Source: Candidatus Bathyarchaeota archaeon
Lineage (GTDB): Archaea; Thermoproteota; Bathyarchaeia; Bathyarchaeales; Bathycorpusculaceae
Direction of reading: 5' to 3'
Assembly (NCBI GenBank): GCA_963826715.1
Contig: CAWGYA010000008.1
Location: forward strand, 672,001-736,000
Length of the DNA: 64,000 nucleotides
The position numbers and the translations under genes are program-made. Shown here one piece after another: positions 2,112-49,779 of the stretch. Every line of letters begins with the position of its first letter. The first letter of the stretch is position 1. The notes under the pieces were generated by a model. The model did no database searches, was not told the origin of the DNA, and was given only the letters and a program-made list of their open reading frames with translations.

Positions 2112-5100
2112 CTATTTAAAATCCAAAAGAGTTGACTGTTTAGGTTTTTTGTTGTCAAACATTAATGTGAGTTCTTCCTTTATTAGATCCATACGCTGGG
2201 TGTAATATTTGGGCAAACCGTACTTGTCAACTAGCTGCTGAGCCGCTACCAGATACTTCTCAATTCCACCGCGATAAACGGTCAAAGAAAGTTTGCCGCT
2301 GCATGAAGGACATTTCCCCACAAGAGGCAGCCGACGAAATTTTCTATTACAAGCTTTACATCGAAACCCCTGCGTAGAAAAAGCACGCATGTTTCCTGCA
2401 ATGTCACGCATGAAGTGAGTATTGAGAACTTTAAGCGCTACACTTTTTGCGCTTACGGCATCGATTTTTTCTCCTAACTCCAATTGCATGTGAAGCTTGT
2501 CTATCATGGATTTGAATTCTTTGTAGCTGCTGTTAGCGTTACCCAAATTAATGTTGGTACAAGGCGTAGTATATTGAAAACCTTCAAATTGCGCCTCCGT
2601 TCCCAAACGATGACTGATGGTATCCATAAATGCACTCACTGGTCTGGCTTCGCCTTTATCCCAGGTTTTGAGGAAGAATTCAAGAGGGTAACTGCTACTG
2701 ACGTCAAAGTCATGAGCTTGCCGCTGAACCTCTTTAGTGTTACAGACCGGAATCAACAAAATCGGCGCATCCATAATACCACCAATCTGGGCTGGCAAAA
2801 AAACCCGGGAAAAATTAAGCAAAGTATCGAGCCCAAGCATAATGGCATCTTCGTCCCCGTCACAGTCCCTTCGCTTGGCAGAGTGCCAAACAGGATGTGC
2901 GTAAATGACGTTTCGGTCAGTATAACCCACGACACGACCAAGAATACAAGCACAGGTGTGTGGAGCCAAACCAAAAATAAGATGTCCAACGAGGTCATCA
3001 GCTTTTTTGAAGCTGTAATAGGGTTGTTGTTTGTAAACGCGAGTTAGTAGATCATCGATGAAAGCAGCTATTTGTAAAAAATACTCGCCAGCGGTCCAGG
3101 GAATAACAACGTCTTGGATTTTAAGTTCGCAAACCTGGTTGGGATCAGTTAATGGCAAACCATGTGTATCGGCTATGTAACCCATCTGATGCATCTTTTC
3201 GATCGAGACACCGATTTCTGCTGGCGTAATGTGAGTGAGCGGAGCATTTGTGGCATCAAAACGTATTGTGCCGTCCTTGTAAACGGATAAACCATACTTA
3301 GCACGCAAGATACCTTTCTCTAACATTTCAGGGGTCTTGTCAAGATTAGTTAAGCCCTTAACACCCCGCAGCATCTTAGGCGCGGAGTAACCCACCGAAA
3401 TGCTGGCGTTATTAATTAGCTCCTTGAAGTTAACGGGTTGACGTTGATATAATACAGCGTTTGATTTACAAGAGCCACAGTAAGCATCTTTAAGAGTTCT
3501 ACCGCATCGAGGGCAAACTTTCTCAGGAAATGTCGGTCCCCCGCAGATTTCACATAGGACTTTCCGAGTATAAGTTTTACACTCTTGGCACTTACGTTTA
3601 ACCATCTCCACAAAAACTGGACCTTTCTTGACCGCTTCCATAAGGTCACGGTGAGAACCTCCAGCTAAACTAACGGGAAAAAGAACGTGCACATTAGGTT
3701 TCATTTCTCTATGCTTAGCCTTTTCAGGCCTACCCATTCGTCCACCAATGTAGGTTGGTGCTTTATCTTTAATCACTACACCCGACAACACACTAAGAAG
3801 CTCCAAAACGGATGTTACCTGCATAGGCTGAGTAAAACGTGTTGTACCATAACCTAATGTGAACGCTAACGCAGTTGCTTCTGGGTCCACCAAAACAGCT
3901 TTGCCTTCAACTATTTTATGGGGAACAAAAATCTTGCGCAGAACCTTCACCGCTTCGCCGTTAGCTTCACCTATAATTTTAGAAACATACCCCTCCTGCA
4001 AAGTCACATCACAGCAACCCAGCCACTTCTGCAGGCATTCAATATCCTCAAAGGTAGGTGTTCCCGTCCAGAAGAACGTGCTACTAGGCGCTAGGGGTAT
4101 TTTCAAGGTTTGGCTAAGAACTGCGGCTTCTTTAGTTGTAGGTTTGTTTTTGAAAGGGTCACAGATAAATCCCTCGAGTTTGTCATATGGAAGATTGCAT
4201 GCTTCCGCAGCTTTTTGAGTATCACCACTGAACTTGGCTAAAACGGCGTTTTGAAGATCTTTACTCCACCATTCCTCCACGTATCCAGAGGGCGGAAGCG
4301 CCTTGTTACTGTAAAGGAAATCGCCGAAGTCAATCAAAATGTCACCTAAGAATAGGATTTTCTGGATTTTGCCCTTAACTTCTGAAAAATTTTCCAAAGA
4401 AACCCGAACCACTGAACCATCCTTGAGCAATACCACGGGTTTCTCAATGCTATCGACGGGCATGGTGACGCCGCCTTTGCCAGGCAACTCAAGACGCATT
4501 TGGGTACCTGCGGCTAGAAAATTCTCCACCACAAGCATGGTGGCTGGGTGTATGCCCACTGCGGAAAGCCCTGTGTTGCGAGATCTGCCGTATCTGAGTC
4601 GGAAACCACCACGGGTTGAGGGAAACGCGAAAATGGGGCGTCCAGCAATAACGTCATCCATGAATCCGCCTGATTTCTTCTCTGATTTTTTCTTAAAACT
4701 CTTGAGCCATTCCCAACCAGAAAAGCCCAGTTTATCAATTATCACATAAACTTTTTGTGCCCGTCCAACAATCCCGTCATTAATAACTCGCAAAGCGCCG
4801 CCACGAACACGGTTTGTTTCCACCCTCTCCAAGTTGCGGTATGAGGAAACCTCAACTGGGTCAGATTCAGTACCTGTACACTCTACGGGCACCAAATTGA
4901 GTGCTTTACGTAGTTCCACATCTGGGATGTGATATTGAAAGCGTCCTACAGAGCGTTCATATAGCCTTAGTTCTTCTACAAAACGGGAGATTTCCTCCTC
5001 TGTGGGCTTGTATACATCTAAACCTAATTCACGACGGACATAGTCGCCGACGACCAATGTTAAGGCTTGGTCAGTTCCACCTGCGGAGCGAATTGGACCA

Positions 5101-5534
5101 GCGAAGTAAACCCCCAGATAGCATGTTTGATCAGCGTTCTTTTTGATTTTGACTTGTGCTATGCCCTGGATTGGTGCGGCAGTTAAACCTTCAGTAAAGA
5201 TAGCCAATGCCGTGCGAATAGCCTGCTCGGCTAGCTTCTCTGGATCTTTCTCTTCTTCAGTTTGAGCAAATTTACCTTGAGCAATTTCCTGTGCTGCTTT
5301 AAAGGCGATCTCTTCACGTGGCAGCATCTTGCTTAATTCTCTGATGCTGACTGCGACGCCTTTGGGTCCAACTAATCCTTCTACCAAATCAGCAATGTCC
5401 TTTGCAATAATGCATTCAGTTTTAAGAGACGGATCTAAGCCATTAGATCTAGCGCTATCGCTGATTTCGTAGATTTGTTTCAACTGGTTGTTTAAGGTAT
5501 CAATGTAGTTTTGGTAACCCTTACTGATGCTCAA
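2112..5534 (-). CDS. polC: DNA polymerase D large subunit DP2
   Basis: YFAGPIRSAGGT, GGFRLRYGRSRNTG, RRDCDGDED catalytic motif and Zn-finger Cys clusters; 1140 aa with no obvious intein. Confidence 0.98.
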   Translation of the reverse strand: MSISKGYQNYIDTLNNQLKQIYEISDSARSNGLDPSLKTECIIAKDIADLVEGLVGPKGVAVSIRELSKMLPREEIAFKAAQEIAQGKFAQTEEEKDPEKLAEQAIRTALAIFTEGLTAAPIQGIAQVKIKKNADQTCYLGVYFAGPIRSAGGTDQALTLVVGDYVRRELGLDVYKPTEEEISRFVEELRLYERSVGRFQYHIPDVELRKALNLVPVECTGTESDPVEVSSYRNLERVETNRVRGGALRVINDGIVGRAQKVYVIIDKLGFSGWEWLKSFKKKSEKKSGGFMDDVIAGRPIFAFPSTRGGFRLRYGRSRNTGLSAVGIHPATMLVVENFLAAGTQMRLELPGKGGVTMPVDSIEKPVVLLKDGSVVRVSLENFSEVKGKIQKILFLGDILIDFGDFLYSNKALPPSGYVEEWWSKDLQNAVLAKFSGDTQKAAEACNLPYDKLEGFICDPFKNKPTTKEAAVLSQTLKIPLAPSSTFFWTGTPTFEDIECLQKWLGCCDVTLQEGYVSKIIGEANGEAVKVLRKIFVPHKIVEGKAVLVDPEATALAFTLGYGTTRFTQPMQVTSVLELLSVLSGVVIKDKAPTYIGGRMGRPEKAKHREMKPNVHVLFPVSLAGGSHRDLMEAVKKGPVFVEMVKRKCQECKTYTRKVLCEICGGPTFPEKVCPRCGRTLKDAYCGSCKSNAVLYQRQPVNFKELINNASISVGYSAPKMLRGVKGLTNLDKTPEMLEKGILRAKYGLSVYKDGTIRFDATNAPLTHITPAEIGVSIEKMHQMGYIADTHGLPLTDPNQVCELKIQDVVIPWTAGEYFLQIAAFIDDLLTRVYKQQPYYSFKKADDLVGHLIFGLAPHTCACILGRVVGYTDRNVIYAHPVWHSAKRRDCDGDEDAIMLGLDTLLNFSRVFLPAQIGGIMDAPILLIPVCNTKEVQRQAHDFDVSSSYPLEFFLKTWDKGEARPVSAFMDTISHRLGTEAQFEGFQYTTPCTNINLGNANSSYKEFKSMIDKLHMQLELGEKIDAVSAKSVALKVLNTHFMRDIAGNMRAFSTQGFRCKACNRKFRRLPLVGKCPSCSGKLSLTVYRGGIEKYLVAAQQLVDKYGLPKYYTQRMDLIKEELTLMFDNKKPKQSTLLDFK

Positions 5535-5657
5535 AGCGACCTTTCACAGCCATGATATTCGGTATAGGGTTATTTTGGTTTTCCTTAAATCAAATGAAAA
5601 TACTACGAGAACCCCAAGAACAGATGTTTTTAGACAATAAAATAGTAGCCTTTTTGC

Positions 5658-5921
5658 TTATTCGGGCTTGGTTACAGGTGTTCTTTTCTGGCTGCCATAA
5701 ACACTGTCAGTGAGCATGCAATAAACGTCCACTTCGCCCTGCGCAGATCGAATCGTGAATTCTTCTTTGAGCCCACAACTGCTGCATTGAGCAACGGAGC
5801 GTCCTCCTTCTTCACGGAATATTTCCACGCGCACAGTTTCTTTTCCGCATGTCGGGCAAGAGAAGAATTTAGGTAAACGCTTCTTTGGAATATGAACAAC
5901 TTTTTTCCTTCTTCGCCCCAT
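5658..5921 (-). CDS. elf1: Transcription elongation factor Elf1
   Basis: MGRRRKK...LPKFFSCPTCG...CSSCG...VDVYC zinc-ribbon pattern. Confidence 0.9.
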   Translation of the reverse strand: MGRRRKKVVHIPKKRLPKFFSCPTCGKETVRVEIFREEGGRSVAQCSSCGLKEEFTIRSAQGEVDVYCMLTDSVYGSQKRTPVTKPE

Positions 5922-6018
5922 ACAATAACCTTCTAAAGTGTCCCGTAACGGTGATTAATATTTATACTTGTCCTTAAATACTTGCCTACCAACGTTGACA
6001 ATGAGGCTGCGTAAAACT

Positions 6019-6861
6019 GTGAAGTTAACGCCCACTGTATTAGATATGGATTTTTCGATGATAGAAAAAAGAATCTGCCGTTTCATAAAAGAATATGTTG
6101 AAAACGCAGGCGCCAGCGGGATTGTTTTAGGGCTCAGTGGGGGGGTGGACAGCGCAACCATAGCGGCACTGTCAAGCAAAGCCCTCAACGGCAACCATGT
6201 TATTGCACTTATGCTTCCCGAAAATGAAACCCAAAAACAAAAAGACATCGAAGATGCCAAAACAGTCGCTGACCTATTTGGAATACAAACTCAGGTCTGT
6301 GACATGACTGCTGCGGTTGAAAATATCTACGAAAGCATCCCTATCTTCGACTCTACAGATAGGCTTTGCAAAGGAAACATCAAAGCGCGAACCCGCATGA
6401 TTTTCCTCTACTACTACTCCAACAAACAAAACTGCATAGTCTGCGGCAGCTCCGACAAATCCGAAACCATGATGGGTTACTTTACCAAGTGGGGTGACGC
6501 TGCAGCCGATATCGCTCCAATCATTGACCTTTACAAAAGTCAAGTTCGCATGCTAGCCGTGCATATGGGCATACCTAAGGAGATAGCCTACAAACCTTCC
6601 ACGCCCGGGCTTTGGCCCGGCCAGCTAGCGGAGTCGGAGTTGCAAATAAAATATGAAACCCTCGATCTGATTCTCTTTGGGTTAGAACACTTTCTGTCAC
6701 CAGAGGATATTGCCGAGCAACTCGGCATAGAACAAACAGTCGTGAACCGAATTAGGAGCCGCTGGTTAGCTCAAGAACACAAACGCCGTCTTCCACTGGC
6801 ATCGAAACTAGGGTTTCGAACGGTCACAAACGATTTTAGACTCCCAAGACACACCTACTAG
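6019..6861 (+). CDS. nadE: NH3-dependent NAD+ synthetase
   Basis: LGLSGGVDS PP-loop, GNIKARTRM, GYFTKWGD. The ORF is open from 5968; GTG at 6019 is a plausible start. Confidence 0.95.
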   Translation: MKLTPTVLDMDFSMIEKRICRFIKEYVENAGASGIVLGLSGGVDSATIAALSSKALNGNHVIALMLPENETQKQKDIEDAKTVADLFGIQTQVCDMTAAVENIYESIPIFDSTDRLCKGNIKARTRMIFLYYYSNKQNCIVCGSSDKSETMMGYFTKWGDAAADIAPIIDLYKSQVRMLAVHMGIPKEIAYKPSTPGLWPGQLAESELQIKYETLDLILFGLEHFLSPEDIAEQLGIEQTVVNRIRSRWLAQEHKRRLPLASKLGFRTVTNDFRLPRHTY

Positions 6862-7704
6862 GTGGACACCATGAAGGACAAAGTTAAGTTGGCACTTTGC
6901 CAAATTAGTAGCGACCGAGAAAACAAAGAAGCGAACCTCCAAAAAATTGAGGCTTTAACTCGACGCGCTGAGCAGGAGGGGGCGGAAATTGCGATTTTTC
7001 CAGAAATGTCGCTTACTGGCTATGTACTCCATGACCAAGTTTACGAGCTATCTGAACCCATCCCAGGACCATCCGTTCAGCGGATAGAGGAATTGGCGAA
7101 AGATACAAAGCTACATATTATTTTTGGCATGCCAGAGCTCTCCGAAAAAGCCCAAGCCACCATATTTAATACCGCAGTATTAGTGGGTCCTGAAGGTTTC
7201 ATCGGCAAATACCGCAAAATGTATCTACCAACCCACAGTGTCTTTGAGGAAAAACGCTACTTCCGACCCGGCTACAAACCTGCCGCGTTCCAAACCAAAT
7301 TAGGAAATATTGGTCTAACAATTTGTTATGATGTGTTCTTCCCTGAGGTATTTCGGCTGCCTCGACTGATGGGCGCCCAACTAATTGTCTGCATTTCTGC
7401 GTCGCCAGCGGTGCGACGAGCTTATTTTGAAATCCTCACAGCTGCCCGTGCTTTGGAGAATACGGCGTATTTGGCTTATGTGAACCTTGCTGGAGTGCAA
7501 GATGGTTTGCAGTTTTGGGGCGGAAGCCGCCTAATCAACGCAACAGGGGATGTTTTAGCTCGAGCAAAATATGATGAGGAAGATTTTGTGGTTTGCGAAG
7601 CGGATTTTTCGGATTTACGGGCTTCTGAAGCCTTTATTCCGACGCTGCGGGATTTGCGCCCTGAGCTTTATCGAAAGCTTAGAAAGCTTTCAGAGAAATT
7701 TTAG
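6862..7704 (+). CDS. Carbon-nitrogen hydrolase (nitrilase superfamily)
   Basis: Catalytic triad motifs FPEM, YRKMYL and ICYDVFFPE. Confidence 0.92.
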   Translation: MDTMKDKVKLALCQISSDRENKEANLQKIEALTRRAEQEGAEIAIFPEMSLTGYVLHDQVYELSEPIPGPSVQRIEELAKDTKLHIIFGMPELSEKAQATIFNTAVLVGPEGFIGKYRKMYLPTHSVFEEKRYFRPGYKPAAFQTKLGNIGLTICYDVFFPEVFRLPRLMGAQLIVCISASPAVRRAYFEILTAARALENTAYLAYVNLAGVQDGLQFWGGSRLINATGDVLARAKYDEEDFVVCEADFSDLRASEAFIPTLRDLRPELYRKLRKLSEKF

Positions 7705-7708
7705 AAGT

Positions 7709-7843
7709 ATCACATATAAACTTGGCTATTGGTGTTTGATGTCACAGGTGCATCACAAAGCTGTGATACTGATAGATTTATTGAAAATCACGGTGATTTG
7801 ACTGTGAGGAGTGACGTCACGGATCGTTTTTTTATGTCTCACA
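7709..7843. repeat. Cluster A of GTGAY/RTCAC motifs and palindromes (putative protein-binding array)
   Basis: ATCACA 7709, GTCACA 7741, ATCACA 7752, TGTGAT 7762, palindrome AAATCACGGTGATTT 7785-7799, palindrome GTGACGTCAC 7811-7820. Confidence 0.75.
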
Positions 7844-8189
7844 GATTTTTTTAAAAGTTTATGTTGCTTTGAAGCGGGTTTGCCGCTAAAAAAATGTGTT
7901 TTATTTACATAAGGTTGTAAAAAGTGCGCGTTTGCCTTTTTGACTGTTTTAAAAAAGAGCATTATTCGTGTAAAGTTAATAATATTACTCCTTTGATTAA
8001 TCGTAGAATTTAGCGTTTTTTGTGTTAATCGCATCTAATTTTTGTCTAAATAGTAAATTAACGATTTTTCAGGTTTATTTTTATTTTTAGAGGTTAGATA
8101 AGAGCTTTATTTGGTAAGCATATTAGCTTTTTGAGGTCTGTAAAGGTTAAAAAGCTGAGTTAGTATACAAAAGTGTATCCATTTAATCT

Positions 8190-8687
8190 ATGGGAGAAAG
8201 CATAAGTTTGAAGCTAAAAGACGGTGTAACAGCATGGTTAAACGGGGCATTAAACGACCCTATTGTCAAAATTCTGGCTAAAAACAGCCAATTAACAAAA
8301 ACGCAGCTTGAAACACTGCTTATTGATGTTTTGGCCGAAAATATATCGGGTAAACAGCTAAAGTACGATGATAAAGCCGCTTTAAGGTTAACAAGGGCTA
8401 AAATAAGTCGCGGTTCGTTTAATAGGACTTTAAAACAGTCCCGTGAAAACGTCATTAAGTCCATCTACACGGTGCTACTTTTGGGATATTTGGGAGTTTT
8501 TGAGACTACAACTCTTGACCCGTACCTCGAAATAGCAAATAAACTGCACGAGTATGTGGAAGCACACCAGGATCTGCCTAACAAGGAGGAGGAGCTAAAA
8601 GACCACCTAAAAGTTATAGAAATCATCCGAGAAGAGCTAGAAACGAGCCTAAAGCGACTTTCTAGTCCCTCAGAAAAGCTTTTGTGA
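8190..8687 (+). CDS. Hypothetical protein with a probable HTH DNA-binding motif
   Basis: QLTKTQLETLL...KAALR...ISRGSFNRTLKQSREN resembles a sigma-r4/Tfx-type HTH; helical C-terminus. Confidence 0.7.
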   Translation: MGESISLKLKDGVTAWLNGALNDPIVKILAKNSQLTKTQLETLLIDVLAENISGKQLKYDDKAALRLTRAKISRGSFNRTLKQSRENVIKSIYTVLLLGYLGVFETTTLDPYLEIANKLHEYVEAHQDLPNKEEELKDHLKVIEIIREELETSLKRLSSPSEKLL

Positions 8688-8974
8688 CGTCACAAGTCAC
8701 AGTTTTTGCCATCATTTTTTACCTATTTTATGATGTTAAAAGCGCTCCTATAAAGCCTACAATTATCAAATATTTCTACAAAATAAGCTCTAATTGACGT
8801 TATTTTCCTCTTGGACAGGCAAGCATTAATGGGTAAGCGTTAAGATTGTGATGTGTGATGTCATGTTTGGATGTGATAATATCACCGTAAACCTTAAAAA
8901 TCCATGGGAATTATTGTGATGTGTGATGTAACCTTTAAAATCACGGTTAAGTCACAACTGAATCACATGGTGAT
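8682..8974. repeat. Cluster B of GTGAY motifs: palindromes plus a 17-bp direct repeat
   Basis: TTGTGACGTCACAA palindrome 8682-8695; ATTGTGATGTGTGATGT at 8845-8861 and 8913-8929; GTGAT-AAT-ATCAC 8873-8885; GTCACA 8696 and 8951; AATCACATGGTGAT 8961-8974. Confidence 0.85.
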
Positions 8975-8980
8975 GAGATC

Positions 8981-9757
8981 ATGGCTGACCTTACATGGGT
9001 AATCTTGGGGGTTTTGGTGGCTGTAACAGCGGTAGCTGCCTACGAATACTACAGGCAAATCCGTATGGCCCACAAAGAATACAGCAAAGCTCGCGATTTT
9101 ATTCAAGATATAGTGCTAAGTTTCAACCGTGAACTCAAACGAGAATCTAACCGCTTTGAATCCATGGTCGCGAAAGTCGATGGAAGCTACGTGTCAGCAG
9201 AATCCAGCTACAGAAAAGTCGAAAGCTTGGAGAAAAAAGTTGAACCCCTACAAGAGCAACTTAGCGTCCTAACCCAATCCTATCAGTCCTTGTCACAGAA
9301 CAGCTCAGAAACCAGCCAAAATAGCACCACCATACTCTCTGGGATAGAGGGGCTTGAATCCAAGCTTAAAGACATCGAAGCTACCCAAGAAACGTTGAGG
9401 AACAGAATCACCGGTTTCGAGGAGCAAATACAGAAACTCTCCATGGCTCAGCCTTCTGTTAAGCAGGCCGAATTGGAAGTTGTGCTGCCACCTATTCCCA
9501 TTAAACGAGATAAAGCCCTAGCCGCACTTACTGAAACGGAGATTGTGGTTTTGGAGATGCTCGTAAAAGAAGGCGCTAAAACAGCCCCTGAAATTAAAGA
9601 GCGGGTTAAGCTTAGTAGGGAACATACTGCTCGTCTTATGAAAAAGCTCTATGAGGAGGGCTACTTGGAGCGGGAAATTGGTAAGATTCCGTTCCGATAT
9701 AGCCTTAAAAAGGAAATGGAGTCCCTGCTTCAGAAAATCGAACCCTCAGTCGCATAA
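8981..9757 (+). CDS. Membrane-anchored coiled-coil protein with a C-terminal winged-helix domain
   Basis: N-terminal TM (WVILGVLVAVTAVAAY), long heptad-rich region, then LTETEIVVLEML...TAPEIKERVKLSREHTARLMKKLYEEGYLER wHTH. Confidence 0.85.
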   Translation: MADLTWVILGVLVAVTAVAAYEYYRQIRMAHKEYSKARDFIQDIVLSFNRELKRESNRFESMVAKVDGSYVSAESSYRKVESLEKKVEPLQEQLSVLTQSYQSLSQNSSETSQNSTTILSGIEGLESKLKDIEATQETLRNRITGFEEQIQKLSMAQPSVKQAELEVVLPPIPIKRDKALAALTETEIVVLEMLVKEGAKTAPEIKERVKLSREHTARLMKKLYEEGYLEREIGKIPFRYSLKKEMESLLQKIEPSVA

Positions 9758-9796
9758 AAATAGGTTGATTTTCACATTTTATGAAGAGTTGAGAAC

Positions 9797-10228
9797 TTAC
9801 TTTATGCGTGACTTTATTGTTGCCGCTGGAATGTTAGACACTGTTTTGTATTTGAGGTTGTTTGATGTACCAGTGCGCATCAACAAGCCCTTTGTAGTCA
9901 TTCTTGAAAGGTACGTGGATATTGTACTTAGGCTAACGGGTTCTTTGAGTTCCTGTTCATAAATTGATTGAATATCTTTGGAGGAGAACCAGATTAGGGG
10001 AAAGTTTTTCTGGATAACTAATTGTACCTTTTCAAAACGAGAAAGATTCCGGTTGGATATTGTAGGGCTCGAAGAGACATTGGGACTTTCAGTCGGCGCG
10101 CTACCTAGCAATTCGACAAGATCCAGTAGGCGCAGAGCTTTATCGCGGGTAACTTGACCTTCAAAAGCAATAGTATAACGATTACCATCACTATCGAACA
10201 GCTCAACGCGCATTTTGCGAGCCGGCAT
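9797..10228 (-). CDS. Two-domain protein with a C-terminal winged helix
   Basis: Small N-terminal beta/alpha domain, Ser/Pro linker, then FSSKDIQSIYEQ...VSLSTISTYLSRMTTKGLLMR wHTH. Confidence 0.8.
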   Translation of the reverse strand: MPARKMRVELFDSDGNRYTIAFEGQVTRDKALRLLDLVELLGSAPTESPNVSSSPTISNRNLSRFEKVQLVIQKNFPLIWFSSKDIQSIYEQELKEPVSLSTISTYLSRMTTKGLLMRTGTSNNLKYKTVSNIPAATIKSRIK

Positions 10229-10247
10229 CTAATTTACACCTAGGTTG

Positions 10248-10547
10248 TTCACAAAATCTACACTTCACGGCATATAACTGTGATGGTGAACAAAGAGAAA
10301 TAGACGGGGTTATTTTAGGCTTTGAATTTATTTTTATCCATATTTTAGACTTTTTACAGGATAACAAGCTTCACATGTTAACAGAACTACAAAATGATTT
10401 CAGTTCAAGCTTAGTTCGCTTTTTCCAGTAGAAGCAGAGGGGTGGCTGCTTCACAGTAAAGAGACAGAATTAGAGTAAATTAACAAAAAACAAGTCTTTT
10501 AAAGCAACAGTTTTTTGGTATTTAATATGGATTCACAAATCTGTGAA
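10248..10547. repeat. Cluster C of TTCACA/TGTGAA motifs
   Basis: TTCACA 10248, 10370 and 10450; TTCACG 10264; GGTGAAC 10285; inverted pair TTCACA-AATC-TGTGAA 10532-10547. Confidence 0.65.
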
Positions 10548-11011
10548 CGGTAAAGATGAAAAAAATCAACTAAAAAATATTTTTAGCAGCCAGGATCAGG
10601 TGATTAGTATGTCATGACTAATTTACTACCTGTTATTGTGTTTTTAGCTATTTTTTATTGGTTTTTGAAGCTAAACGCACACCCCTATGTTTCCGCTCGA
10701 AGTTTTACGGGTAAAAAAGAAGTTTGGCAAGGCTGAAAAAAAATTCGCATAAGTTTTGTTTAGGATTTTAGACAGATATCATTAATATATAAAAATCCTA
10801 TTAGAACTTAGAGTATAGTTCTATATATATATATAATAATAATAATAATATGAATTTTAAAATAACTCACTGATTTTTTCCAATAGAAACATTGGGGTGT
10901 GTGTTCTTCCCTTTTTGTTTAATTGTTATAGCCTTTAACCATCCTTTTGTAGGAATATGTTGTGCCAAAACCAGTTTTTTGTACTGATTCATTTATCTGT
11001 TCCACTCGAAG
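10423..11011. other. Replication origin (oriC) with ORB elements and an AT-rich unwinding region
   Basis: ORB-like boxes: TTCCAGTAGAAGCAGAGGGG 10423 (+), 10674-10702 (-; TTCGAGCGGAAACATAGGGGTGTG), TTCCAATAGAAACATTGGGGTGTG 10878 (+), mini-ORB GTTCCACTCGAAG 10999. (TA)n/(TAA)n tract at 10822-10851. Directly upstream of cdc6. Confidence 0.88.
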
Positions 11012-11048
11012 TAACGGTTCTACCTGTGTAACAGATAGCGTGGACAAC

Positions 11049-12284
11049 ATGGGAAATTCAAGCATATTAGATGACGTATTTGATAATTTCGTTAACGGGA
11101 CAAAACTTTTCAAAGATCGAGAAGTTCTACGTCATGACTACTTACCTGATAAACTACCCCATAGAGAAGATCAAATTCGCCTTTTAGGTGCTACTGTGGC
11201 TCCCGTGCTAAAAAATGCTCGATGCTCAAACATCTTCATTTATGGTAAAACTGGGACCGGGAAAACTGCCGTTGCAAAATATGTTCTCAGTCATTTAGAG
11301 TCAAAAGCTAAAGAATACGGTGCACAAATCAAATTTTGTTATATTAATTGCCGCATGACAGGTTCAGAATATCGTGTTTTTGCTAATCTTAGCCAAAGCT
11401 TAGGCTTAACAATTCCATTTACTGGGCTCTCTGTTGGAGAAGTTTTTGACAGATTTCGCTCAGGTCTTGATCAATCCAGAATAATATTCATTATTGTTCT
11501 CGATGAGGTGGATGCCCTAATTAAGGATCGTGGCGACGCCTTCATGTACGAACTTACTCGAATAAATGAAACACTGAGTAAAAGTAAGGTTTCTATAATC
11601 GGCATATCAAATGATTTACGCCTTAAAGAATTTCTTGATCCAAGAGTATTCAGTTCGCTTAGTGAAGAAGAATTAGTTTTTCGACCTTATGATGCAGCGG
11701 AACTTCGTAACATATTACTTGAACGTTCAAAGTTAGCTTTCCAAGATAACGTTTTATCAGATTCTGCTCTGAGTATTTCATCTGCTTTAGCTGCAGCGGA
11801 ACATGGTGATGCACGACGTGCTCTGGATTTGCTGCGTGTAGCAGGTGAAGTAGCGGAGCGCGAGAATGCAAAATCTGTTACTGAGGAGCATGTTCGGCAA
11901 GCCGAAAAGCACATTGAGCATAATCGGGTTGTTGAAGCCCTCAACAATCTTACCCTTCATTCCAAATTGGTGCTACTCAGTGTCTATCACTTAAACAAGT
12001 CAAATTCAACCACAGGTGAAATCTATGATGTTTATAATGAACTCTGTTGTGAGATGGGTTCGGGACTGCTAACTCAGCGACGCTTGGGCACATTGGTGAA
12101 TGAGCTTGATTCAATGGGACTTGTCAACGCCAAAGTGGTAAGTATGGGTAGATACGGCAGAACTAAAAAAATCCGTCTTGAAATCTCCAGAGGCTTAATC
12201 CGTGATGTTTTTGGTGGTGATGCCCGTTTCAGTCAAATCATTAGCTATAAGACTAAGGGTATGCATAAACCCATTGATAGCTAA
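11049..12284 (+). CDS. cdc6: Orc1/Cdc6 replication initiator
   Basis: LRHDYLPDKLPHRE, Walker A GKTGTGKT, Walker B VLDEVD, GDARRALDLLR and C-terminal wHTH with GRYGRTK. The ORF is open from 10962, but that extension overlaps an ORB. Confidence 0.97.
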   Translation: MGNSSILDDVFDNFVNGTKLFKDREVLRHDYLPDKLPHREDQIRLLGATVAPVLKNARCSNIFIYGKTGTGKTAVAKYVLSHLESKAKEYGAQIKFCYINCRMTGSEYRVFANLSQSLGLTIPFTGLSVGEVFDRFRSGLDQSRIIFIIVLDEVDALIKDRGDAFMYELTRINETLSKSKVSIIGISNDLRLKEFLDPRVFSSLSEEELVFRPYDAAELRNILLERSKLAFQDNVLSDSALSISSALAAAEHGDARRALDLLRVAGEVAERENAKSVTEEHVRQAEKHIEHNRVVEALNNLTLHSKLVLLSVYHLNKSNSTTGEIYDVYNELCCEMGSGLLTQRRLGTLVNELDSMGLVNAKVVSMGRYGRTKKIRLEISRGLIRDVFGGDARFSQIISYKTKGMHKPIDS

Positions 12285-12285
12285 T

Positions 12286-13866
12286 TTAAAGAAAAGAAAG
12301 CACAGTTGTCTCCAATGTTTGAAGATTCACCACCGGCACCTTGCCTGGTGTTGGGACTAGCCCTAGCTTTTCCATATAGTCAGTTTGTTCTTGCCACCCA
12401 CCTGAATTAACAACTAACACTCCTCGGTAATTACAAAAGCCTAAAACGTGGATGTGCCCTGCGTGGAAGATGTCCGGAACTTTGTCGACAACTAGGAAAT
12501 CTCGATTTTCTGGTGAAAGCATTGTTTTTCCACCATAGACAGGAGCAAGGTGCCGACCTTGCAAAAGCAGTTTCATTGATTTTTCAGGGTGGTCATTATC
12601 CATTCCCGGAACAACTCCGATTATATCATTTAGGCTTACGCCATGAAACATCAAAACCTCAACTCCATGTATACTGAGGTAGCATGGACTGCCGACAGAA
12701 TGAATGTTATTTTTCCCTTTAATTCCATTTAGATAGCCCTCAGGAATAGCGGGTTGAGGCTGGGATTTACGTGCGGCATCATGATTGCCTGGAGAAATTA
12801 CAATTTCAATATAGTCAGGAATTTTACTAAGGTATTTTGCGGCAAAATTATACTGTTTGTGGATATTGCGGATGGTTAGCTCTTTCTGTTGATCAGGATA
12901 GATACCGATACCATCCACGATGTCCCCTGCAACTAATACGTATTTTACTCTACCAGCGATTTCCTGCATGGACGGTGAGCCGTATTTCCCTCGAAGCCAT
13001 TGTATAAAGTTTTTAAAAGCCTTTTTGTTAAATTTAGTGCTTCCCACATGAATGTCTGATGTTAAAACTGCGTAAATGGGCTCATTTGCTCGATTTGGTG
13101 GTTTTCTGCCTACTTCTGGAAGAATTATATCCTCTGCCATTAATAGGTCGGAGCGAGTTTTAATAACGGCTGCACAGAAAATCGTGTCGGGCAAAATCAT
13201 AAGTGCCTTCTTCTTTACTTCTTCTGGTGCCTTCTGCGGAACCATAATAGTTGCATTTCCTTGAAGATCCTCTACAGAGAGAATAATATTGTTTTTTGCA
13301 TCACGCTTCTCAGTTAGCATGCAGATGATTTTGAGCTTGGTTTTGGGCTGAGATTTTAGTGCTTCCGCAATAGGTGTGGCGGCTCTAACATCCATTCTTT
13401 GGCGAAGCACTCTTTCTATGCGTTTAAAACGGTCTTGGAAGTAGCTGCTATATTCGTTGAGGGTCCCGTTGGAGGTCAATTCTCCCGTATGGTCTTGGAG
13501 GATGACTAGTTCTGAGGGAATGTATTTGGCGTAAGGATAAAACTCGTTTGCATCTTCGCCTTGTATTGTTATTGCAGGCTTGGGGGCCCTTGGTGTTTCC
13601 GTTGTGGGGTAGCTTACTTGAGGAAGTTCAACTATAACTTCAGGGATTGTCGTTGTCTGCTGCATAATCGCTTCCAAAAAGCTACGTTCGATAAACATGG
13701 GTTTTTCCTGCAGTGCCTCTAATCTCTGCAAAGCCATGTTCATTATCAAGGCGGGGTCGTGTTGTGAGTTTTGGATGAGAAACTCGAAAGCTTCACTATT
13801 CAACTGATAACCTGCAGCAATAGTAGCCTCGATTGCATTTTGGAGTTTCTCTTCTACACTTATCAC
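12286..13866 (-). CDS. polB: DNA polymerase D small subunit DP1 (proofreading exonuclease)
   Basis: OB fold plus calcineurin-like motifs SDIHVGS, AGDIVDG, PGNHD, HG and AGHIH. Confidence 0.97.
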   Translation of the reverse strand: MISVEEKLQNAIEATIAAGYQLNSEAFEFLIQNSQHDPALIMNMALQRLEALQEKPMFIERSFLEAIMQQTTTIPEVIVELPQVSYPTTETPRAPKPAITIQGEDANEFYPYAKYIPSELVILQDHTGELTSNGTLNEYSSYFQDRFKRIERVLRQRMDVRAATPIAEALKSQPKTKLKIICMLTEKRDAKNNIILSVEDLQGNATIMVPQKAPEEVKKKALMILPDTIFCAAVIKTRSDLLMAEDIILPEVGRKPPNRANEPIYAVLTSDIHVGSTKFNKKAFKNFIQWLRGKYGSPSMQEIAGRVKYVLVAGDIVDGIGIYPDQQKELTIRNIHKQYNFAAKYLSKIPDYIEIVISPGNHDAARKSQPQPAIPEGYLNGIKGKNNIHSVGSPCYLSIHGVEVLMFHGVSLNDIIGVVPGMDNDHPEKSMKLLLQGRHLAPVYGGKTMLSPENRDFLVVDKVPDIFHAGHIHVLGFCNYRGVLVVNSGGWQEQTDYMEKLGLVPTPGKVPVVNLQTLETTVLSFL

Positions 13867-14088
13867 TTTTTAGACCTTTATTCCCTTTTTTTATACCGTG
13901 TATTTGTTAGGCTCTATGGCTTTTGGGTTATTTACTGTTTTTTGTTTTTATAGTTCCCCCTGATTAAAACTCTTTTTCAAACTTTTAACCCATAGCTTGA
14001 AAAATAGTTCTTTGATTGATAATGACGGGGTTTAAGCAATTTATATAAGCTGTGTAATGTTTAGATTTGTTATATCTTGGTGTGCTTT

Positions 14089-48993: not shown

Positions 48994-49503
48994 GAATTTC
49001 TAACCTCTTTTCCTCGCCTAATGCTTACAGTACAGGATTATATTAGCTTATCATAACGCTCTTTATTTATAAATTTAGCCTGGCAAAAAGCTGAAAGCCT
49101 TGTTTGTAAGCTTCAACCCAGGTTTCATTTTTTATTTGTGGAATCGTGGTTGCCGCAACGCGCGGTAGCCAAGGTCGCTAATCTTTCTATCTTTTCTAAT
49201 CAATCAAAACCCTTAGGCGGGACCTTTATGCCAAATCTTTTTCGTTGCTGATTTAGATCTTGGTGGCGTAGTGGACCGAGTTTCCATTGCAGAATTTTAT
49301 TACCTTTCCATAGTGAATATTTGGAAGTATTGTTTTGCTAACTACCGCTTTTATTATTATAGGACTTCCGGTTTTAAGATGTAAATAACGGGGGCCTTTC
49401 TAATATTTAAGTAACGTTTAGCTCCAACACTTTTTTTGGCTATAAAAGTGAAAAAGTATAAGAACATGTGTGTTCCCTTATTGGGAAGCTGGTAGTGAAG
49501 AAC

Positions 49504-49779
49504 GTGAACGTTCCTAAAGAAATCAATACATACTGTCCTAAATGTAAAGCTCACACAATTCATACTGTATCCCTCTATAAACCTGGCAAACGCCGCGCGC
49601 TCGCCCGTGGTGAACGCCACCACGCGCGTGAAAAAGAGGGGTACGGCGGACAGAAATATCCGTTGCAGCATGAATTCGCAAAAACCACCAAAAAGCAGAC
49701 TTTGCGCCTTAAATGCAAAACCTGTAGTTACATGTACCACAAAGACGGCATTCGCCTTAGAAAAATGGTTATACAATAA
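49504..49779 (+). CDS. rpl44e: 50S ribosomal protein L44e (eL42)
   Basis: TYCPKCKAHT, GYGGQKYP and KTTKKQTLRLKC. Confidence 0.96.
   Translation: MNVPKEINTYCPKCKAHTIHTVSLYKPGKRRALARGERHHAREKEGYGGQKYPLQHEFAKTTKKQTLRLKCKTCSYMYHKDGIRLRKMVIQ

Follow-up and report, generated by a model that had tools for sequence, protein, structure and literature searches.

In Bacillus subtilis, RacA, a helix-turn-helix (HTH) and coiled-coil protein that acts with its ram sites and DivIVA, ties the origin region to the membrane or pole and needs no dedicated motor to do so; RacA does not reside in the membrane itself, its sites are scattered over hundreds of kilobases around the origin, and it acts in sporulation only. 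Membrane-fixed transcription factors such as ToxR/CadC and the archaeal ArnR bind promoter DNA directly and combine an N-terminal DNA-binding domain with an external sensor or extra membrane spans, and WhiP and bacterial CtrA are known as origin-bound accessory or regulatory proteins. Here we describe a locus on a 64,000-nucleotide stretch of a Candidatus Bathyarchaeota genome (assembly GCA_963826715.1, contig CAWGYA010000008.1, positions 672,001 to 736,000; hereafter the window, within which positions are counted), where three small genes, termed A, B and C, lie between the nadE operon and a predicted replication origin with its orc1/cdc6 gene, as an initial annotation of the sequence had stated; C is encoded on the minus strand. 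In layout, the nearest published counterpart of the locus is the haloarchaeal oapABC/arvABC cluster, which is unrelated in sequence and has likewise been described as a conserved three-gene cluster divergent from an origin-associated Orc1/Cdc6 gene across the main origin (PMC7002104, PMC7921747). Its products are a small GTPase, a DUF2073 protein and a DUF2072 zinc ribbon, and OapA/ArvA has been assigned to extracellular-vesicle formation (PMC10927574). None of these three families is matched by A, B or C in Pfam, and the consulted passages of the published accounts describe neither site arrays nor a membrane-anchored DNA binder (PMC7002104, PMC7921747, PMC10927574).

SegAB of Sulfolobus and AspA-ParBA of pNOB8 resemble the locus in another respect: they employ a dimeric site-specific binder (a winged helix in AspA) and palindromes immediately upstream of their own operon, and these sites may double as centromere and operator (PMC5120986). 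They differ in using one or two sites, compared with about 22 here, and in having no membrane anchor, and origin adjacency is not stated in that text (PMC5120986). They differ also in their adjacent ParA-type ATPase: the window has none, as the annotation had noted, with no PF13614 match there and six elsewhere in the genome, and the only P-loop family found by Pfam among eight scanned proteins of the locus is that of Cdc6. No ParB family appears among the Pfam and NCBIfam matches of A, B and C at E<=0.1, in libraries that hold no SegB profile. For archaea other than Sulfolobus and the haloarchaea, the means of positioning, segregating or timing origins are listed among the outstanding questions (PMC5120986), and a search of titles and abstracts found no description of the A-B-C module, an absence that is not proof of novelty.

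We propose, with moderate confidence, that the locus represents a conserved origin-flanking set of three small DNA-binding proteins and two separate families of cis-acting sites. The first family consists of GTGA/TCAC cores. With density measured as cores per 150 nucleotides (nt), values of 10 are reached at 7644-7937 and at 8774-9065, compared with a maximum of 7 elsewhere in the 2.64-Mb genome (8 contigs), where the mean is about 0.9 and 42% of the counting intervals contain no core. The repeated unit is tGTGAyNt (728 sites, 35 loci), with preferred spacings of 7 bp for tandem copies, 6 for the GTGAnnTCAC palindrome and 11 bp for repeats. The locus holds about 22 sites, including 4 of the 42 tandem pairs spaced by 7 bp in the genome and two of its 7 GTGAYRTCAC palindromes (at 7811 and within 8684-8703), and there is no second dense array elsewhere in the genome. 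The other five palindromes are isolated, mostly within reading frames, and point to no regulon; a dispersed group of strong sites is not seen. In an alignment of 14 spacers the cores of the upstream array are in register across the genus; this array has at least 7 cores per 150 nt in all 24 loci of the genus and in 4 of the 11 that come from the order's other families, and the A-B spacer reaches the same density in 32 of 35 order-level loci, over a locus background of 0.7-1.4. The cores of the B-proximal array flank two TTAAAA boxes on both sides and reach the ATG of B, a geometry that would fit promoter occlusion. With 10 cores each and no equal in the genome, the two arrays form a candidate centromere-like site cluster near the gene of their putative binder. 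Dense GTGA arrays had been claimed ahead of each of the three genes; this holds for the upstream and B-proximal arrays, which are present at orthologous loci as well, and the spacer ahead of C is weaker in GTGA.

That spacer carries the second family of sites. Six of the eight cores between C and Cdc6 read GTGAA or TTCAC; in the arrays the nucleotide A follows GTGA in only 5% of cores. The stretch 10203-10593 has 7 TTCAC/GTGAA sites per 330 nt, a density matched at one other place in the genome; 8 places, this one included, have at least 6. Two other TTCAC-rich spots (49299-49642 in the window, and one on contig 7) are largely coding sequence. In the alignment of 14 genus-level spacers these sites stand out as conserved islands in otherwise diverged DNA, around the TATA-like box of C, beside the first origin recognition box (ORB)-like repeat, ORB1, and between ORB1 and ORB2, where the palindrome TTCACAAATCTGTGAA (TTCACA-N4-TGTGAA) is located. 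In 28 C-Cdc6 spacers, 137 of 185 GTGA cores are of the TTCAC/GTGAA type. At least 4 such sites are present in 15 of 16 Bathyarchaeia spacers with C, and the three origin spacers that have Cdc6 and lack C contain 1-2 each.

The predicted archaeal-type origin itself is recognized from the Orc1/Cdc6 gene (TIGR02928, 421.6 bits against a cut-off of 181.3) and three conserved ORB-like repeats, two direct and one inverted, in a C-Cdc6 spacer of 0.73-0.82 kb, depending on the Cdc6 start. Many orthologues align only from residue ~28-30 of the listed reading frame, which begins with GTG at 10962, so that the true start is probably ATG 11049 and the origin spacer correspondingly longer. An unwinding role for the AT-rich stretch follows from the general archaeal origin layout of an initiator gene and an AT-rich stretch between repeated ORBs (PMC4010727), and is predicted on that basis.

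The gene order (PolD-L, A, B, C, oriC/Cdc6, PolD-S, where PolD-L and PolD-S are the subunits of DNA polymerase D) is retained throughout the order and in a large part of class Bathyarchaeia, and the expectation that homologues would be linked to origins was borne out across Bathyarchaeia and in archaea that encode AmoA. The order-level comparison covered 34 loci from 34 relatives, 23 belonging to the same genus and 11 to other families of the order. A and B are neighbours in every one of them; C comes next in 32 (L033 meets a contig end, and L043 has no match in the 2.6 kb past B), and Cdc6 comes after C in 28, with five contig ends and one locus (L034) with no Cdc6 match in 1.9 kb past C. For a wider, class-level set, 40 loci with A were taken from 39 genomes in ~20 other families, together with flanks of +/-9 kb. 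Cdc6 lies within these flanks in 26 of the 40. A subunit of DNA polymerase D (PolD) is missing from the flanks at only 3 loci: L070, one of these, has Cdc6, and L073 is the single locus with neither. Outside the class, in family f37, where both genomes checked encode archaeal AmoA, the PolD large subunit, A, B and C occur in this order in 10 of 10 loci, followed by Cdc6 in 9 and then by the PolD small subunit in 8, contigs ending after C (L094) and at Cdc6 (L096). Three loci of two further families, f54 and f48, keep A, B, C, Cdc6 and the PolD small subunit together with A divergent from B, and other families have just B and C as a pair (f42, f64) or A and B (f44, f49).

Comparison of these loci indicates which elements travel together. 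At class level, a peak of at least 8 cores per 150 nt occurs in 16 of 28 loci with B and in none of 12 without it, and in f37 a peak of at least 6 spans the A-B junction in 10 of 10 loci whose GC content ranges from 32 to 62%. Arrays are kept without C in f24 (e.g. L059) and without A in f42 (L103, L104) and f64 (L112), where 10 cores per 150 nt lie directly upstream of B. Since the arrays persist without C or without A and never reach 8 per 150 nt without B, B is the only module protein whose presence tracks them; their distribution follows B and not the origin. Cdc6, in turn, is tied to C, not to B. In 151 class genomes, with Cdc6 orthologues defined at E<=1e-80, C and the orthologue occur together in 88, C alone in 1 (a weak 32-residue match), Cdc6 alone in 11 and neither in 51. 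Most copies of C (69 of 89) lie divergently at less than 1.5 kb from Cdc6, the median gap being 715 nt; of the remainder, five are divergent with an insert of ~3.3 kb, seven are on other contigs and eight are otherwise arranged. Five genomes without the Cdc6 orthologue (four of f24, one of f33) have only a 29-33% identical paralogue elsewhere, and C is absent from them.

These patterns bear on whether the arrays might be bound by a factor encoded elsewhere, such as a global regulator or chromatin protein, or might act through RNA or DNA structure, their association with B being only that of a promoter with its gene. A core of only 4-7 bp and the overlap of some dense stretches with coding sequence would suit this explanation. 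It is nevertheless very improbable, considering that the arrays vanish with B while A and its promoter remain, that the genome has no other dense array, and that the recognition helix of B and the DNA core are both kept across classes; nor did Rfam (E<=1) and ARAGORN searches over 5000-14000 return any match to a non-coding RNA or tRNA.

In protein B, residues 183-241 score above the Pfam cut-offs for MarR (30.0 against 24.6 bits), TrmB (29.8 against 25.6) and HTH_27 (22.6 against 22.2), which places B, at the level of profiles, in the MarR/TrmB winged-helix families. B shares the domain with these families but not the architecture: MarR/TrmB regulators are soluble dimers whose interface is built by helices flanking the winged helix, and in B an N-terminal anchor and a coiled coil of ~140 residues precede the winged helix instead. 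Residues ~35-165 match many coiled-coil families in Pfam. All 14 aligned orthologues have a single strongly hydrophobic 19-mer at the extreme N-terminus, where the 0-4 residues ahead of it are neutral or acidic and the flank behind it is neutral to positive, suggesting a single-pass anchor with its N-terminus outside and C-terminus inside. The membrane-anchored winged-helix protein of the initial annotation is thereby supported, with the DNA-binding domain predicted to face the cytoplasm. Among orthologues the length of the coiled coil differs by tens of residues, and the juxtamembrane segment (EYxKAKxxVxDIVLSFNR) and the winged helix are highly conserved; in the latter, the near-invariant helix SREHTARLMKKL conforms to the strict pattern (S/T)REH(T/V)(A/S)R..KKL in 42 of 48 orthologues and to REHxAR in the other 6. 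Matches to B were found in 35 of 41 relatives, and its profile detects 116 of 201 phylum genomes at E<=1e-5, many of the matches being partial. B-like proteins of f42 and f64 (L103-L105, L112) have no hydrophobic N-terminus; their coiled coil and REHVAR helix are retained, as are the GTGA arrays upstream of their genes.

With RacA, B shares the combination of HTH and coiled coil, but RacA is not itself in the membrane and its sites are dispersed; unlike ToxR/CadC and ArnR, B exposes only 0-4 residues outside, has a long coiled coil and carries its winged helix at the C-terminus. From the observed gene order, domains, site statistics, conservation and co-occurrence we infer the binding partners and physiological consequences as follows. 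B rather probably binds the GTGA arrays: its cytoplasmic part would form a coiled-coil dimer or oligomer on the tGTGAy repeats of the B-proximal array, the 8684-8703 cluster and the upstream array. Bound at its own core promoter, B would repress its gene, and, because it is anchored, it would keep the array DNA, which lies 1.5-2.7 kb away from the first ORB, at the membrane.

Protein C was modelled (predicted local distance difference test, pLDDT, 70) as a beta-beta-alpha domain at residues 5-42, a disordered linker and one winged helix at 64-129. Of the two winged-helix domains first claimed for it, one was recovered; the N-terminal domain is modelled as beta-beta-alpha instead. Structure searches with Foldseek and VIA-align returned generic winged-helix proteins only, such as RosR, Fur and MecI (best VIA Z = 10.2, to the Fur DNA-binding domain), and a sequence search of the PDB gave weak BlaI/MecI-type rows only. 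Membership in the BlaI/MecI/CopY repressors was rejected: Penicillinase_R scores 18.5 against a cut-off of 22.6 bits and CopY 13.5 against 121.95, the extra domain of C is N-terminal, where those repressors carry a C-terminal domain for dimerisation and sensor cleavage, and the winged-helix fold is the sole common feature. C is present in 89 of the 151 class genomes. A non-Orc, sequence-specific protein with sites in an origin has a precedent in UBP of Sulfolobus, which binds the ucm element between ORBs (PMC12141716). UBP has a beta-rich saddle shape, hundreds of genomic sites and a gene away from the origin, whereas C has a winged helix, is encoded at the origin and has its candidate sites concentrated there; likeness of the two was rejected on fold (PMC12141716). 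We give C an even chance of binding the TTCAC/GTGAA sites, which flank its own TATA-like box and extend between ORB1 and ORB2, and by doing so it would regulate itself and modulate cdc6 expression or origin use. A C-like protein with the same beta-beta-alpha and winged-helix ends, joined by a Q-rich linker of ~130 residues, is encoded in Methanococcoides (L113-L116, e.g. L115 8001-8894), next to a UvrB-like gene.

Protein A, present in 126 of 151 class genomes and in 97 of the 107 high-quality ones, is probably an HTH protein. It matches no Pfam or NCBIfam family and its model is poor (pLDDT 60). In a VIA search of 48,161 chains, most of the top rows align region 4 of sigma factors with residues ~22-96 (Z 5-6.4, below the caution level of the tool), many of them extracytoplasmic function (ECF) sigma factors and several solved with anti-sigma partners; one distant member of the A family reaches DUF134 at E 5.8e-4, under the cut-off, and an atlas lead (0.79) points to a cluster in which 14% of members carry Sigma70_r4. 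Foldseek returned nothing at E<=0.001 with the A model, the PDB sequence search gave no meaningful solved relative, and an exact look-up of sequence clusters gave uninformative names. Homologues number 314 clusters at E<=0.001 among 1.84 billion representatives, the close ones sourced from Candidatus Bathyarchaeia. The earlier assignment of A as an HTH protein thus agrees with weak sigma-region-4 likeness and finds no firm fold or profile match, and a role of A and C as soluble adaptors is unsupported. We take A as a probable sigma-region-4-like HTH protein with a different promoter-proximal element. Ahead of the A start, a candidate core promoter contains a TATA-like box followed by AGTATACAAAAnTGTATCCATT (8163-8185), whose sequence is conserved across 14 spacers of the genus and which may serve as an operator of its own, perhaps one for A. 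TTG 8208 is a possible alternative start of A, and between the array and this promoter, in the spacer separating the CN-hydrolase gene from A, 7930-8030 is a moderately conserved block (gtttgcaaaag...gtgtaaagtt) without an Rfam match.

The resemblance of A to ECF sigma factors raises the prospect of a sequestration switch in the style of an ECF sigma factor and its membrane anti-sigma factor, where B would hold A until a signal or proteolysis frees it and the arrays would autoregulate the pair. Besides the alignment of residues 22-96 to proteins solved with anti-sigma partners, the widely kept order of A then B, the overlapping A and B open frames of L106-L108 (f44, f49) and the B juxtamembrane segment, a possible protein-binding site, are compatible with such a switch. 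We consider it quite improbable, given that the topology of B is reversed relative to known anti-sigma factors and that B has its own DNA-binding domain, that archaea use TBP and TFB rather than sigma factors, and that A is kept without B in all ten of the B-less genomes searched.

The main alternative to the proposed origin-flanking set is ordinary autoregulation, in which A, B and C would be conventional transcription factors, the arrays elaborate operators, and the neighbourhood of oriC an order inherited within an ancient island of replication genes. We regard this as possible, if on balance doubtful. Each array precedes or surrounds the promoter of one of the module's genes, arrays stay with B even far from Cdc6, and B and C are each dispensable in many lineages; moreover, oapABC is as tightly linked to the origin, with OapA/ArvA assigned to vesicle formation and no replication function found (PMC7002104, PMC10927574). 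Harder to reconcile with ordinary regulators are the concentration of ~22 sites at one locus without a second dense array, which leaves no visible regulon, an anchored B that has no extracytoplasmic sensor, the loss of C together with the window-type Cdc6 orthologue, conserved TTCAC sites between ORBs, beyond the promoters, and the same gene order in two classes. Even if plain autoregulation were the answer, a recognition helix conserved together with its presumed DNA core in two classes, and the joint loss of C and one Orc1/Cdc6 orthologue, would be rare.

Several observations weigh against the proposed set, and in particular against an origin role. The co-occurrence counts come from related genomes, so their independence is overstated, and independent gains and losses are few. 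Among class-level loci with B, 12 of 28 have no peak of at least 8 cores per 150 nt, and in 6 of the 16 that do the dense peaks lie inside NadE or HypF frames, for which reason the density measure may pick up coding sequence or gene-embedded sites. TTCAC enrichment in f37 is weak (0-6 per spacer). In f42 the arrays are retained beside a B-C pair whose B-like protein has no anchor and which lies ~190 kb away from the Cdc6 orthologue, and in f24 A, B and the arrays are present in the absence of a window-type Cdc6 orthologue. Among searched genomes with a B-less locus, B was found nowhere in 10 of 10 by one count and 10 of 11 by another, and A is present in these ten; the examined flanks of the Methanococcoides C-like genes contain no Cdc6, A or B at any of the four loci. 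The low-confidence model of A and its sigma-4 likeness below the caution level count here as well. Finally, because oapABC was later assigned to vesicle formation, origin synteny by itself is weak evidence of origin function.

Considering all this, a real role of the locus in origin positioning or segregation appears doubtful, and it is unlikely that B and the arrays constitute a motor-free, membrane-anchored centromere-like device that ties the chromosome near the origin to the cell membrane in Bathyarchaeia and ammonia-oxidising archaea, with C as an origin-bound Orc1/Cdc6 partner gating initiation. If true, B, its arrays and C would together provide the first connection of origin, membrane and cell cycle to be described for these archaea. 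The locus offers three unnamed proteins and two defined families of DNA sites within ~3 kb of the predicted oriC, in a module whose conservation extends from Bathyarchaeia to ammonia oxidisers amenable to laboratory culture, such as relatives of Nitrosopumilus or Nitrososphaera, and the trio are specific candidates for a connection of the origin region with the membrane or the cell cycle.

The features of the locus are listed in Table 1. The genes are ordered PolD large subunit, Elf1-like, NadE, CN-hydrolase, A, B, C, origin spacer, Orc1/Cdc6 and PolD small subunit.

Table 1. Genes, candidate sites and origin elements of the A-B-C locus, in window positions
Feature	Position	Strand	Description
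DNA polymerase D large subunit gene (PolD-L)	2112-5534	minus	Open reading frame, taken to be PolD-L from similarity and because it pairs with PolD-S; forms the outer border of the conserved island, with orthologues bordering the module in relatives
Elf1-like gene	5658-5921	minus	
NadE gene	5968-6861		
CN-hydrolase gene	6862-7704		
Upstream array	7705-7860		10 tGTGAy/rTCACa cores, palindromes ATCACGGTGAT and GTGACGTCAC; ~300 nt upstream of the A core promoter
Candidate core promoter of A	8144-8185	plus	TATA-like ggTTAAAAa, then AGTATACAAAAnTGTATCCATT; no GTGA core
Gene A	8190-8687	plus	165 residues, all-alpha; probable sigma-70 region 4-like HTH at residues ~22-96
Palindrome GTGACGTCAC and two more cores	8684-8703		Overlaps the A stop codon
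B-proximal array	8830-8980		10 cores, two copies of ATTGTGATGTGTGATGT
Gene B	8981-9757	plus	258 residues; predicted anchor at ~5-24, coiled coil, MarR/TrmB winged helix at 183-241
Gene C	9797-10228	minus	143 residues; beta-beta-alpha, linker, one winged helix; divergent partner of Orc1/Cdc6
TTCAC/GTGAA sites	10229-10560		Around the C TATA-like box (10249-10290), at 10371 and 10451; palindrome at 10531-10546
ORB-like repeat 1	10420-10444	plus	Repeat search; conserved in 14-spacer genus alignment
ORB-like repeat 2, inverted	10680-10701	minus	Repeat search; conserved in 14-spacer genus alignment
AT-rich stretch, candidate unwinding element	10740-10860		GC 0.337 over 10001-11000
ORB-like repeat 3	10875-10899	plus	Repeat search; conserved in 14-spacer genus alignment
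Orc1/Cdc6 initiator gene	10962-12284	plus	Pfam Cdc6_C, Cdc6_lid, AAA; TIGR02928
DNA polymerase D small subunit gene (PolD-S)	12286-13866	minus	Pfam DNA_pol_E_B and Metallophos; other flank of the island, syntenic

A second Orc1/Cdc6 paralogue, 31% identical, is encoded in the same genome (G000, contig C2:383907-385028); it is of the type that remains in lineages without the Cdc6 orthologue of the window and C, and a second origin may lie near it. One genome (G094, 82% complete, 3% contamination) has two regions with A and C-Cdc6-PolD-S on different contigs (L076, L077), which could reflect two strains in one bin or a real duplication. In f24, HypF is inserted between A and B (L058 9458-11782), and stretches with 9-11 cores per 150 nt lie within the NadE and HypF frames flanking A (L058 8363-8661 and 10208-10532; L055, L059, L060, L078 and L079 are alike), the NadE stretch at about the same distance upstream of A as the upstream array of the window; these may be either a chance product of His/Val/Asp codons or embedded sites. 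An insert of 2.5-3 kb separates B from C in one genus-level and six family-level loci (L025, L036, L037, L038, L042, L044, L045).

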